From an uncultured Candidatus Saccharibacteria bacterium (GTDB lineage: Bacteria > Patescibacteriota > Minisyncoccia > Phycocordibacterales > UBA9988): a stretch of DNA of 64,000 bases. The notes beneath the pieces are model-generated. The model saw only the letters and a program-made list of their open reading frames with translations, was not told the DNA's origin and made no database searches. The stretch's first letter is position 1. Each line of letters opens with the position of its first letter. The stretch is from contig CAYNXC010000002.1 of the NCBI GenBank assembly GCA_964401135.1, forward strand, positions 16,457 through 80,456. The letters are read 5' to 3'. This document shows, one piece after another, positions 55,236 to 63,982 of this stretch. Position numbers and translations under genes: made by a program.

Positions 55236-55613
55236 ATGGCAGACGAAAAATTCAAGGATATCATTGAAAAGATAGAGTCACTCTCCGTACTTGACCTGCA
55301 TGAATTGGTCAAGGCGTTGGAGGAGAAGTTTGGTGTGTCAGCAGCTGCTGTCGCGGTAGCCGCACCAGGAGCAGGAGCCGCAGGAGCTGAGGCTGAGGCA
55401 AAGGACTCGTTCACTGTTGAGCTGACTTCAGCGGGTGATAACAAGATTGGGGTGATCAAGGCATTAAAAGAGGCTCTTGGTCTAGGACTGAAAGAGGCAA
55501 AGGATCTTGCAGAAGGTGCCCCTGCCGTCTTAAAGGAGGGAGTGAAGAAGGAGGATGCCGATGCGCTCAAGAAAGCTCTTGAAGATGCCGGCGGAAAGGT
55601 AACACTGAAATAG
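55236..55613 (+). CDS. rplL: 50S ribosomal protein L7/L12.
   Basis: N-terminal dimerisation helix, an Ala/Gly/Glu hinge and a C-terminal domain ([22 protein letters not shown]). Confidence 0.95.
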
Positions 55614-55630
55614 CCCATATACTATAATTT

Positions 55631-55675
55631 CCGAAGTCGGACTTCCGCCTCCGGGAGGTGGTCCGACTTTGTTCG
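55631..55675 (+). terminator. Rho-independent terminator after rplL.
   Basis: GAAGTCGGAC...GTCCGACTT stem with an inner CCGCCTCC/GGAGGTGG helix, followed by a T-rich run. Confidence 0.7.
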
Positions 55676-61438: not shown

Positions 61439-62575
61439 GTGACGACTCTGACACAATTTTTTGGGCGCGTACGCATTGATTGGGTCCTCTTCTGCGCCGT
61501 GCTCCCGCTCCTTGCCGCTGGGCTGGTAACAATGGAGTCGTTTGAGAGTGGAGCGGATTACTTTTTTGTGCGGCAATTAGTGTGGGTACTCATTTCAGTC
61601 GCAACATTCCTTTTCGTGAGTGCGGTAGACTGGCGTTTTTTGAAGCGCAGCGGCGTGTTGACAGGACTATTTATTGCGATGGCGCTTGTGCTCCTTGCCC
61701 TTTTTGGCCTGGCGCACACGGTGCGTGGCGTGCAGAGTTGGCTCATCTTTGGCGGGGTCTCTTTTCAACCGGCTGATTTTGCGAAGCTTATCTTAATTAT
61801 CCTTCTCGCAAAATATTTTTCTCGTCGACATATTGAGATCGCCAATGTCCGCCATATCCTAGTCTCTGGTGTGTACGCATTTATCTTTTTTATACTCGTC
61901 TTTCTTCAGCCAGATTTTGGCTCTGCGATGATTATTTTTGCCATCTGGTTGGGTATGGTACTGGTGTCGGGGATTAGTAAACGGCACTTACTTATTGTGT
62001 TTCTGATTGGAGTGGCGACATTTCTCTTCGCGTGGACGAGCGTTTTGGAGGATTATCAAAAGGCGCGTATAGAAACTTTCTTAGACCCACTCTCCGATAT
62101 CCGCGGCTCCGGCTACAATGTGTACCAGAGTATGATTGCCGTTGGGTCGGGTCAGCTGGTGGGAAAGGGAGTTGGACTGGGAACACAATCTCGACTCAAG
62201 TTCTTGCCAGAGTACCAGACTGATTTTATTTTTGCAGCCTTTGCCGAGGAGTGGGGCTTTGTAGGGGTAATTATCCTTTTCTTACTCTACGGTATTGCCT
62301 TCTGGAGAATTATTGTGACTGCGCGACAGGGAGCGACTAATTTTGAGTCGTTCTATGGACTGGGTATCGCCATAATGTTTTTGAGTCACTTTGTGATCCA
62401 TGTGGGGATGAACATAGGACTCCTGCCTGTCACGGGCTTGCCGCTCCCCTTTATGAGCTACGGCGGGTCACACCTTCTGATGGAGTTTGTTGCTCTTGGT
62501 ATCCTTATGAGTCAGCGCCGCTACACGCGTGCCTTTCACCGCGACGACATGCAGAATGAGTTTGTGGGGGTATAA
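61439..62575 (+). CDS. ftsW: SEDS-family peptidoglycan glycosyltransferase (FtsW/RodA).
   Basis: 10-TM profile with the conserved C-terminal block NIGLLPVTGLPLPFMSYGGSHLLMEF. Confidence 0.9.
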   Translation: MTTLTQFFGRVRIDWVLFCAVLPLLAAGLVTMESFESGADYFFVRQLVWVLISVATFLFVSAVDWRFLKRSGVLTGLFIAMALVLLALFGLAHTVRGVQSWLIFGGVSFQPADFAKLILIILLAKYFSRRHIEIANVRHILVSGVYAFIFFILVFLQPDFGSAMIIFAIWLGMVLVSGISKRHLLIVFLIGVATFLFAWTSVLEDYQKARIETFLDPLSDIRGSGYNVYQSMIAVGSGQLVGKGVGLGTQSRLKFLPEYQTDFIFAAFAEEWGFVGVIILFLLYGIAFWRIIVTARQGATNFESFYGLGIAIMFLSHFVIHVGMNIGLLPVTGLPLPFMSYGGSHLLMEFVALGILMSQRRYTRAFHRDDMQNEFVGV

Positions 62576-62594
62576 ATAAAATATGGCTTAACTA

Positions 62595-63298
62595 TGGAGG
62601 TGAGACTTCCATCAATCAATGGATAACTCGTTATGACTCGAGTCTTCGCGTTCTTGTGCAAGCCAATCGAGAGTCTCTTGATAAAATCGTTCAGGCGTCT
62701 CAAACCATTGAGAAAGAAAGGATGTATCAACAACTTTTATACGACCATTATCATATGCACCGTCCTTCTTAGATAAATAATCTTGGAAACTTGACCAAGG
62801 GTAGGTGATAATGGAAGTCTCACTTCCATCAAAAGGATTACTATGAATGTAATGAGGGAGCCAATTAAAGTGCTCGTCAGAGATCACTGGCTTAGACTTG
62901 AACCTCCCTTGGAAAAGTGCACCGACTCGACTGTATCTCAAGTTAAAATAATTAGTATAACCAGTGCCAAGTTTTCTCATAAACTTAGTAAGCCCATATT
63001 CAACTCGTTGCCGTATCATAAGGTGGTAATGATTTGGCATTAAGCAATAAGCCATCAGCTCAACTAGTTGCCCATCCAATTCATGGCTAAGTGATGGAAG
63101 TCTCACTTCCATCAGACGGTGTGCGTTTGGATCAGTTGCTTCGGTAGAGTTAAAAAGTATTAAGGATGCAATAAAACGAGATCGATCGGCATCATCTAAA
63201 AATATGTCTCTTTTTTCAACCCCTCTATTATAGATATGAAAAATTGTGTCTGTATCATCCATGCGTCTCTATTATTGATGGAAGTCTCACTTCCATCA
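62595..63298. repeat. Cluster of four REP-like 23-nt palindromes (TGATGGAAGT-CTC-ACTTCCATCA) around and inside the RAYT gene.
   Basis: Copies lie at 62595..62614 (inverted orientation, one G·U mismatch), 62809..62831, 63092..63114 and 63276..63298. Confidence 0.85.
62612..63262 (-). CDS. REP-associated tyrosine transposase (RAYT; IS200/IS605-like Y1 HuH), with two in-frame REP palindrome insertions.
   Basis: IFHIYNRG (beta1), LMPNHYHLMI (HuH), GTGYTNYFN (Tyr region) and ALFQGRFKSK (RAYT-specific) motifs. At 216 aa it is longer than typical RAYTs (150-170 aa). Confidence 0.8.
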   Translation of the reverse strand: MDDTDTIFHIYNRGVEKRDIFLDDADRSRFIASLILFNSTEATDPNAHRLMEVRLPSLSHELDGQLVELMAYCLMPNHYHLMIRQRVEYGLTKFMRKLGTGYTNYFNLRYSRVGALFQGRFKSKPVISDEHFNWLPHYIHSNPFDGSETSIITYPWSSFQDYLSKKDGAYDNGRIKVVDTSFLSQWFETPERFYQETLDWLAQEREDSSHNELSID

Positions 63299-63388
63299 GA
63301 GTGAGGTGAATAGGATAGATGATGCTGCCACACGCGGGCCTTCCACCGCGACGACATGCAGAATGAGTTTGTAGGGGTGTGATCAGGA

Positions 63389-63982
63389 TTACTTGCAGGG
63401 CATACCCCAGGTGACTGTTCTATCCTTAGCATTTGTGGATGAGTTATCTTCTGGATTATAATCATACTTCTTACCATCACAGAGAATCACCCCATCAGAC
63501 CCTTCAGACGGGTTTATCATCTTTTCTAGTTTAAATACAATCATATAACATGCGCCGTTTGGACAATAGTTACCCGATGAGTATTGTGAATAATATGCGT
63601 AGATAAAATTATTACCCGTATCATTAGTAGGAGGATTCTTACTAGAGACAGCTGTATTTATTGGATCAGTAGGAAGTTTCGGAAGATATTTTGACAAATT
63701 ACTCTGCAATGAGTCCCATTCTGCAGGCACATTGCTTTTCAGCCAGCCGCTGCTGATGGTAACATGTGGATAATGCCCATTATCAGCACGATATAATTCT
63801 AACGCATTCATTATCTGTCTCACCTCCTGAAGTCTTTTTGTATCCCTCGCCTTCTTTCTCGCATCATCCACACTCACCAATACAATAGACGAAAGTACCC
63901 CAATGATGCCAATCACGACCAAGAGTTCTATGAGGGTAAAACCCGTCTTACGGGACGGGCCCCATACATTTACATGCGCCAT
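63389..63982 (-). CDS. Type II secretion/type IV pilus major pseudopilin-like protein (GspG/PulG-type).
   Basis: RKTGFTLIELLVVIGIIGVLSSIVLVSVDDARKKARDTKRLQEVRQIMNALELYRADNGHYP matches the prepilin leader plus the conserved GspG alpha-helix. Confidence 0.75.
   Translation of the reverse strand: MAHVNVWGPSRKTGFTLIELLVVIGIIGVLSSIVLVSVDDARKKARDTKRLQEVRQIMNALELYRADNGHYPHVTISSGWLKSNVPAEWDSLQSNLSKYLPKLPTDPINTAVSSKNPPTNDTGNNFIYAYYSQYSSGNYCPNGACYMIVFKLEKMINPSEGSDGVILCDGKKYDYNPEDNSSTNAKDRTVTWGMPCK

Follow-up and report, generated by a model that had tools for sequence, protein, structure and literature searches.

In-frame copies of the flanking hairpin at two fixed sites of a Y1 HUH transposase-like gene family in Patescibacteria

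The window analysed here is a 64,000-nucleotide (64-kb) stretch of contig CAYNXC010000002.1 from an uncultured Candidatus Saccharibacteria bacterium (assembly GCA_964401135.1). It encodes a Y1 HUH enzyme related to the tyrosine transposases associated with repetitive extragenic palindromes (REPs), which are known as RAYTs (REP-associated tyrosine transposases) or TnpA-REP. The gene is flanked by hairpins, and copies of the same hairpin stand in frame at two sites inside its coding sequence (CDS). Most of the related loci that we compared also have a hairpin at one or both of these sites. Internal and flanking hairpins of one locus evolve in concert.

A gene with four copies of one hairpin

The 23-nt palindrome TGATGGAAGT-NNN-ACTTCCATCA is present in four copies, all at positions 62592-63298. 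A scan of the whole window confirmed the original prediction of four occurrences in about 700 bp, two of them in frame within an open reading frame (ORF) of 216 aa. We found no fifth copy with up to three mismatches elsewhere in the 64 kb, and the number expected from shuffled sequences was 0. The locus consists of the following features, given with the evidence for each.

62612..63262, minus strand: Y1 HUH (RAYT/TnpA-REP-like) gene, 216 aa (ORF, Pfam, NCBIfam, AlphaFold model, ratio of non-synonymous to synonymous substitution rates or dN/dS)
63276..63298, no strand: copy D, an exact and perfect hairpin with a 10-bp stem at the family's upstream position, 13 nt before the start codon (palindrome match, folding)
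63092..63114, no strand: copy C, an exact and perfect hairpin inside the CDS at the family's site 1 (palindrome match, alignment, model, covariation)
63083..63091, minus strand: tail of copy C, with the gene-strand sequence CTTAGCCAT translated as L-S-H (agrees with the tail seen on solitary copies of the element)
62809..62831, no strand: copy B, a hairpin with an 8-bp stem and one mismatch inside the CDS at the family's site 2 (palindrome match, folding)
62592..62614, no strand: copy A, a decayed downstream hairpin with three mismatches that overlaps the stop codon (palindrome match, folding)
62583..62592, minus strand: tail of copy A, with the gene-strand sequence GTTAAGCCAT (same tail as copy C and solitary copies)

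Copy A is a flanking copy whose loop is inverted relative to copies B to D, as had been described, but it starts at 62592 and not at 62595. Copies B and C are both in frame, each in a different phase. Copy C is translated as L50-MEVRLPS-57 (LMEVRLPS), in the loop that links helix 24-36 to strand 67-74, and copy B as F144-DGSETSII-152 (FDGSETSII), which directly follows the helix of the catalytic tyrosine. They are true copies of the flanking hairpin, in agreement with the original prediction, and copy C even includes the tail CTTAGCCAT. Folding as single-stranded DNA gave -8.8 kcal/mol for copy C (z -5.0), -8.9 for copy D (z -5.8), -6.4 for copy B (z -4.6), and -2.3 for the decayed copy A (z -0.5).

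An assembly artefact, made of collapsed or chimeric repeats, had been named as a possible cause of this layout. We regard its probability as negligible. We compared ten independent Logan assemblies, made from different runs, over the 901 nt at window positions 62500-63400: nine are identical and the tenth differs by one base. The same layout occurs in dozens of unrelated metagenome-assembled genomes. The order pilin-RAYT-rodA was constant in all ten Logan assemblies, at one locus only.

A class-2 Y1 HUH enzyme under purifying selection

The window protein is a class-2 Y1 HUH enzyme with a Y---NP motif, since it has the invariant HUH and Y---NP residues, a match to Y1_Tnp and a fold match to 4ER8. 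The earlier assignment to RAYT/TnpA-REP-like enzymes is upheld by these data. The Pfam profile PF01797 (Y1_Tnp) matched residues 67-141 only, with 32.6 bits against a cut-off of 23 (E 1e-7). The NCBIfam equivalog of the E. coli type, NF047646 (REP_Tyr_transpos), gave 35 bits, under its cut-off of 80, and matched all of the 24 family members searched weakly (best E-value 1.8e-10). The protein contains the HUH motif H78-Y-H80, preceded by N77, the catalytic Y138-IHS-N142-P143 and an L-F-Q-G motif. Among 120 listed relatives, H78, H80, Y138 and N142 never vary, and at least 90% have P143. From these relatives we built an AlphaFold model (confidence scores pLDDT 83.9 and pTM 0.83), whose fold order is beta-alpha-beta-beta(HUH)-alpha-beta-alpha(Tyr). 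With Foldseek, the top PDB match of the model was 4ER8_A (E 4e-6), a structure of E. coli TnpA-REP in complex with a REP hairpin; the IS608 and ISDra2 transposases came next. Profile search against PDB sequences gave no match at E ≤ 0.01, and the fold search was required. Hairpin-specific cleavage and joining of single-stranded DNA would be a putative activity of the window protein. There is no tnpB in the gene neighbourhood.

The gene is intact and under purifying selection. In comparison with an 87%-identical relative, dN/dS was 0.11 at a dS of 0.59, and with a 71%-identical one it was 0.10, values that contradict the earlier suggestion of an inactivated protein.

Database relatives amounted to 5,948 protein clusters at E ≤ 1e-3. 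The 120 listed relatives have 183-275 aa, mostly 207-250, and the 216 aa of the window protein are the family norm. Those with a source name came from Patescibacteria or candidate-phyla bacteria. This is a large, mainly Patescibacteria clade of class-2 Y1 HUH enzymes related to RAYT/TnpA-REP, with the consensus motifs NHYH, FQG, YIHLNP and WSS.

Alignment and model both place the internal hairpins in loops between the conserved blocks, as originally proposed. Within the modelled catalytic core, confidence is lowest at site 1 (pLDDT 59-71). The peptide of copy C aligns with the family motif EVxLP, in which V53 and L55 are at least 90% conserved, with zero length gain, and the site-1 loop has the same length in hairpin-less relatives. 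At site 2, about eight residues (x-G-S-x-T-S-x) in the hairpin form replace 12-15 residues (xPEWRxxxxxN) in the hairpin-free form, and hairpin-bearing members are shorter than hairpin-free ones. The 216 aa had been taken for an inflated length, which these comparisons do not bear out. The 150-170 aa given as canonical for RAYTs hold for some subclasses but not for others: the medians of the subclasses range from 151 to 325 aa in the published survey (PMC6006769, Table 1).

Two fixed sites across the family

We compared the window locus (WIN) with 80 related loci from species-representative genomes and four from metagenomes; L-numbers are labels of these loci. Occupancy was counted in the 74 loci with complete gene and flanks. 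Most genes have a perfect palindrome at the EVxLP position, with a 3-nt loop, a stem of 5-19 bp and a locus-specific stem sequence (e.g., gcccccttgattgaagtTCAacttcaatcaagggggc in L002 and ttttgaaatcttcggaggtTGAacctccgaagatttcaaaa in L077). In the common layout, one hairpin lies 20-60 nt upstream of the gene, one or both internal sites are occupied (site 1 at about +142 to +190 nt, site 2 at about +425 to +465 nt), and a further hairpin lies 0-30 nt past the stop codon or overlaps it. The upstream position was occupied in 65 loci, site 1 in 53, site 2 in 26 and the downstream position in 69, including 16 in which the hairpin overlaps the end of the CDS. The background elsewhere in the same loci was 0.7 hairpins per kb. 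At least one internal hairpin was found in 63 of the 74 loci (85%), down to 36% protein identity. The reading phase of the loop centre was constant in 50 of the 53 site-1 hairpins, and another phase was constant at site 2 (21 of 26). Stems can reach 17-20 bp, their outer sequence being specific to the locus, and stems inside the coding sequence are perfect to 17-18 bp.

Relatives without internal copies, which the original prediction had proposed to look for, do occur. In L093 both internal copies have decayed in place and the flanks are perfect (12-16 bp); loss is therefore possible. Seven other loci have both flanks, an intact gene and neither internal hairpin. Fitch parsimony on a rough neighbour-joining tree of 169 columns placed site 1 at the root, with about 15 changes, and left site 2 absent from it, with about 14 changes against 21.5 for shuffled labels. 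According to these reconstructions, a hairpin at site 1 is the probable ancestral state. With some 14 changes on a tree whose root lacks it, the hairpin at site 2 seems to have come or gone several times in the same place.

The original prediction saw the window gene as a shorter, canonical RAYT that had recently been colonised by hairpins, inflated to 216 aa and possibly inactivated. This is very unlikely. It is true that the internal hairpins are copies of the flanking element, tail included, and that site 2 was apparently gained more than once in the family. However, the protein has a family-normal length with no gain at either site, dN/dS is about 0.1, and site 1 is inferred to be ancestral. 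The four-copy layout is also found in relatives at 87%, 71% and 62% identity, and the same sites hold locus-specific hairpins in most of the loci compared, which does not fit a one-off event.

Internal and flanking hairpins evolve in concert

At arm positions 6-11, which lie beyond the conserved 5-bp core, internal copies matched the flanks of their own locus at 4.0-4.6 of the six positions, and those of other loci at 2.2-2.6. None of 10000 permutations gave so high a match to the own flanks in any comparison. The 5-bp core of site 1 is that of a flank in 50 of 51 loci, and the core of site 2 in 20 of 26.

In an ungapped alignment of 49 site-1 hairpins, all of the 14 stem pairs showed double changes, with 155 double-change cells compared with 58 ± 5 in shuffles (0/500 as high). 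Pairing reached 82% in the site-1 stems and 31-45% in a slid register. The same can be followed between close relatives: from WIN to L091 (the 87% relative), a single compensatory pair has changed at site 1 (TGATGG..CCATCA to TAATGG..CCATTA) and the loop has flipped from GAG to CTC. G-U pairs are rare in site-1 stems, and a DNA palindrome thus fits better than a structure of RNA only.

Stop-creating hairpin variants are excluded inside the gene. Among site-2 loops, TCA occurs 11 times and TGA, a stop in the site-2 phase, not once, whereas the flank loops use both (TGA 21 and TCA 5 upstream, TCA 17 and TGA 8 downstream). In L095, where a perfect arm would read GAC-TGA, both internal copies carry an identical G variant (TGG). 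The frame does not require this variant at site 1, and its presence there points to copying between the two internal sites.

A different explanation would be that the conserved thing is a protein motif (EVxLP, GSxTS) and that the palindromes, including those of the flanks, are by-products or derivatives of its coding. The conservation of V53 and L55 is in line with it, as is an aldehyde dehydrogenase gene that has the palindrome at a native EAGLP-type motif. Yet the outer stem varies freely with compensation and thereby dictates a different peptide in each locus. In L047, L062 and L072, the hairpin is kept in another reading phase and the encoded peptide is unrelated, which argues that DNA and not the peptide is conserved. 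Hairpins are also found in the non-coding flanks and as solitary intergenic copies, and the model has low confidence at site 1. We therefore give this explanation very little credit.

Maintenance of the internal hairpins

We are somewhat inclined to see the internal hairpins as tolerated resident copies, kept by copying at the DNA level and not needed by the protein. The locus would be a unit of about 750 bp resembling the REPtron of E. coli and consisting of hairpin, gene and hairpin, with the cognate hairpin also in frame at two fixed permissive loops. Site 1 is the loop that joins helix alphaA to the strand preceding the HUH motif, and site 2 is the stretch directly after the catalytic-Tyr helix. 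As its structural relatives suggest, the enzyme would bind the hairpins on single-stranded DNA. The four copies within about 700 bp would be kept alike through gene conversion or through template switching from one palindrome to a neighbouring one. A plausible stimulus of this copying is that the enzyme nicks those of its hairpins that lie close to the gene encoding it (cis preference). Selection would act solely as a filter for an open frame and a tolerable loop peptide. Local copying is supported by gene conversion also visible in the rodA-end repeats that flank the unit (see below). If the hairpins are indeed tolerated copies, "colonised transposase" would describe an old, recurrent and stable state and not a recent hit.

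Several points weigh against tolerated copies. That the protein binds or cuts these hairpins is argued by analogy. A site-1 occupancy of 72%, across lineages with saturated synonymous sites, is high for a passenger. Long perfect palindromes are usually prone to deletion, and together with the high occupancy this could mean that the hairpin itself is under selection. One or both internal copies remain in 85% of loci, although the two sites are not significantly complementary (Fisher p 0.18), a signal too weak to show that one internal copy is always kept. Conversion and recurrent re-insertion would give the same data here. The loci were found through protein similarity, the hairpin calls are threshold-based and the ancestral states rest on a rough tree.

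The internal hairpins could instead be selected cis-acting elements, used on their own gene by the enzyme (on single-stranded DNA) or as mRNA structure, e.g., for negative autoregulation of a potentially harmful nuclease or for programmed local recombination. We hold this to be a serious possibility, if a rather doubtful one. Position and phase are deeply conserved, with an internal copy in so many loci; stems of 17-18 bp remain perfect inside the coding sequence; the hairpin is kept where the encoded peptide is completely different; and internal copies track the specificity of the flanks. On the other side, L093 and the seven other loci named above have lost both internal hairpins, with perfect flanks and an intact gene. 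The near-absence of G-U pairs speaks against a structure of RNA only, and conversion alone could yield the same pattern.

Hairpin type and dispersal

The family consensus is symmetric, tat-N-GAAGT-NNN-ACTTC-N-ata, with GAGGT as a second common core. It was derived from 65 upstream and 69 downstream hairpins and lacks the 5' GT[AG]G foot that canonical REPs have on an imperfect stem, and a search across the family found no conserved asymmetric foot or guide beside the hairpins. The WIN clade has a repeat with an asymmetric tail, (G/C)TTA(A)GCCAT, which follows copies A and C. Sharing of 10-nt tails within loci is a weak signal across the family and clear only in the WIN clade. It exceeded the permutation background only between upstream and downstream hairpins (21/5000) and between site 1 and downstream hairpins (111/5000).

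Palindromes that are perfect and odd, follow a symmetric consensus and lack an asymmetric foot in the family as a whole could also be double-stranded operators of a dimeric DNA-binding protein. We find this most improbable. Stems of 17-20 bp with locus-specific outer sequence exceed the need of any operator, the sole associated gene encodes a Y1 HUH enzyme whose relatives bind hairpins, and the WIN clade does have an asymmetric tail.

We scanned JGI (Joint Genome Institute) metagenomes for the 21-nt core, which returned at least 120 stretches, of which 80 were analysed. Eight were homologous units, four of them with all four copies exact, and 72 were solitary copies. The tail was present on 12 of the 72 (background 5e-4). 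Some solitary copies lie upstream of miaA and others in frame inside host genes. The hairpin appears to behave as a REP-like dispersed element in related genomes, as indicated by the solitary tailed copies in metagenomes, and copy C is a full copy of it because it includes the tail. Extra hairpins were also found within 3 kb on either side of some related loci (e.g., L015 and L062). The label "REP" used in the original prediction is thus apt in part; the foot is lacking, and the other 63 kb of the window hold no dispersed copy.

Not all matches of the 21-nt pattern belong to the element. Many of the solitary metagenome matches are chance or unrelated, e.g., those in gut contigs and in a marine family with the peptide IDGSxTSIN. 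This family of proteins of about 500-570 aa, seen in L123 (TARA), L101, L108, L117 and some 20 other marine contigs, has a palindrome with a 13-bp stem, cattgatggaagtNNNacttccatcaatg, that encodes IDGSxTSIN with a variable loop and shows complementarity extended beyond what the search pattern demanded. It is probably unrelated to the Patescibacteria element. On metagenome contigs L109, L170, L141, L122 and L147, the 21-nt palindrome was seen in frame in genes for a DegT-type aminotransferase, KsgA, Fmt, an aldehyde dehydrogenase and an ELP3-like radical-SAM protein; the aldehyde dehydrogenase is the case where it coincides with a native motif.

Three other hairpin arrangements were noted. At window positions 55631-55668 there is an orphan imperfect hairpin, CCGAAGTCGGACTTCCG, whose core GAAGT-CGG-ACTTC is the family's commonest type, unlike that of the window locus. 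It is intergenic, after the ORF 55236..55613, has no adjacent Y1 gene, and is accompanied by a partial copy about 15 nt downstream. On the 86-kb contig of the 87% relative, two adjacent hairpins with opposite loops (L099, 2795-2845) form a doublet resembling a REPIN, just upstream of miaA and about 30 kb from the Y1 gene. Finally, in L095 (3789-3998) the called prepilin-peptidase ORF is N-terminally extended by about 60 residues through three upstream hairpins, which encode MTGVRLQS, MSEVGLRK and EIGSPTSG. Since the hairpins are open in two frames, gene callers read through them and neighbouring ORFs are extended.

Relation to known systems

In-frame REPs have been described in tnpAREP genes of subclass 2.4 (Bertels group 4) and regarded as an extension at the periphery that the protein tolerates (Quentin, Siguier, Chandler, Fichant 2018, PMC6006769). 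The likeness is close: a class-2 Y1 HUH gene flanked by cognate hairpins, with in-frame copies in a peripheral loop. The differences are several. Subclass 2.4 has the motifs NH[IFV]H, WQ and YIxNNP, whereas the window protein has NHYH, FQ and YIHSNP. The insertion of subclass 2.4 is between HuH and Y, but here the hairpins stand before HuH and after Y. The REPs of subclass 2.4 have a GT[AG]G foot or a "double foot", in contrast to the symmetric palindromes with GAAGT/GAGGT core described here, and its hosts are Cyanobacteria and Bacteroidetes instead of Patescibacteria. The available part of that article does not report fixed sites, phase constancy or covariation with the flanks for subclass 2.4.

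By its motifs the window family is closer to subclass 2.1, or TIRYT (Bertels group 1; Di Nocera 2013, PMC3733652), with which it shares NH[YF]H, FQ, Y[IV]HLNP and WSS/SS, a length of about 230 aa and a C-terminal extension; the motif match was judged by the published table alone (PMC6006769). Subclass 2.1 has been reported without REPs, with GGGGWSAS terminal inverted repeats and a helix-turn-helix (HTH) or DnaA_C-like tail, unlike the hairpins of this family. We found no Pfam match to such a tail (Bac_DnaA_C, HTH_23 or HTH_28) at E ≤ 1 in 24 family members, and no GGGGWSAS motif in the 2 kb around the window gene, the nearest being about 2 kb off. Judged by these sequence motifs, the family would fit subclass 2.1 and not subclass 2.4, without the HTH tail and the repeats of subclass 2.1.

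The E. coli REPtron (TnpA-REP, RAYT or YafM; PMC3333891, PMC3479197; PDB 4ER8) is the best structural match, with HUH and Y---NP, and likewise has a gene flanked by hairpins, some of them inverted; its gene is single-copy, as the window gene may be. The differences are an enzyme of 165 aa and REPs that combine a GTAG foot with bulged stems and are dispersed in hundreds of copies. We found no report of internal REPs in the E. coli REPtron, and a search of PMC8266576 for terms on internal REPs or autoregulation gave no match. REPs have been reported inside host genes (Di Nocera et al. 2013, PMC3733652), and these intragenic REPs, as well as the Rickettsia palindromic elements, resemble our case in that palindromes are tolerated in frame in protein loops. 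They are scattered in host genes, whereas here the host gene encodes the element's own enzyme and the sites are family-wide. The TnpA of IS200/IS605 shares the Y1 HUH fold and hairpin recognition, but it is a class-1 enzyme (Y---Q) of about 150 aa, multicopy and often with tnpB, with hairpins at the ends only, none of which holds here. Our literature search brought up no paper that describes such hairpins from the candidate phyla radiation.

As far as we have seen, this kind of phenomenon is known; new are the subclass, the pair of sites and the type of hairpin, together with the evidence that the sites are fixed and that the hairpins evolve in concert. RAYTs are a textbook case of domesticated transposases. 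In this family of at least 5,900 protein clusters, the putative recognition hairpin of the enzyme forms part of the enzyme's coding sequence at fixed positions, in frame, and it co-evolves with the flanking copies. This provides a natural data set in which constraints on DNA structure and on protein bear on the same bases. It also gives a handle on the co-evolution of enzyme and hairpin, in a subclass previously described as lacking REPs, and suggests, as an idea that can be tested, that the locus of such an enzyme is itself a target of the enzyme in cis.

Insertion site and flanking repeats

The unit of the window is bracketed by a 55-nt direct repeat (62517-62571 and 63324-63378), which the original prediction had missed. 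It is part of a duplication of about 57 nt of the rodA end.

62517..62575, plus strand: 3' end of rodA, the functional copy including the TAA stop, direct-repeat copy 1 (ORF, repeat search)
63324..63382, plus strand: extra rodA 3' end, direct-repeat copy 2, 91% identical and ending in TGA (repeat search, empty-site comparison)

The extra rodA end lies 6 nt from the stop codon of the convergent pilin gene, where the true rodA end sits in the empty site. The unit and the duplicated gene end are thus placed about 57 nt inside the original end of rodA. Empty sites were found in L219 (5073-5141) and L222 (2270-2285). On a 672-kb contig of a relative with 94% RodA identity, rodA is followed after 1 nt by the convergent pilin stop and the unit is absent. 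A relative with 73% RodA identity is also empty, and the gap between rodA and the pilin gene in empty sites is 0-1 nt. The unit is present in relatives with 88%, 81% and 80% RodA identity, and RAYT and RodA diverge in step (87 against 88%, 71 against about 80%).

The extra rodA ends are orthologous across genomes, and their central ~35 nt carries the synonymous variants of the own genome, which points to an old duplication with ongoing conversion. Third codon positions account for 9 of the 11 differences between true and extra copies (p 0.0014), counting rodA and the 5' end of the prepilin-peptidase gene of L095. A neutrally decaying target-site duplication is rejected for the rodA repeat on account of these third-position differences and of the orthology of the extra copies, with central variants that are specific to each genome. 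Nor is there support for the empty site of L219 as a pop-out by recombination between the repeats, given that the end in L219 is of the "true copy" type. Repeats of 55-72 nt bracket the unit at other sites as well (L070, L095, L027 and L062). Candidate origins of the repeats are a long target duplication, unequal crossing-over between palindromes and integration of a homology-bearing circle, none of which is established.

These repeats suggest a more speculative and, in our view, improbable scenario, in which the in-frame hairpins are selected cis sites for the HUH enzyme (for autoregulation or local recombination) and the ~750-bp unit is a minimal integrative cassette in gene ends that carries or regenerates about 60 nt of its target. 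The idea of a cassette comes from the repeats that bracket the unit at several independent sites, from their coding-like substitutions (at the rodA and prepilin-peptidase sites) and, at rodA, conversion, and from the alternation of presence and absence among close relatives. We know of no Y1 HUH element that acts as an integrative cassette of that kind.

Three observations concern the surroundings of these units. Y1 units are repeatedly located beside genes for type IV pilins or prepilin peptidases, at two or three insertion sites (window 63389-63982; L091, L221, L093 and L095). The 81% relative (L220) encodes two LAGLIDADG homing endonucleases upstream of rodA, in ORFs at 457-972 and 1221-1712. 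In L048 (1284-2990), the unit of hairpin, gene and hairpin is tandemly duplicated together with the end of the neighbouring gene, with a period of 925 nt.

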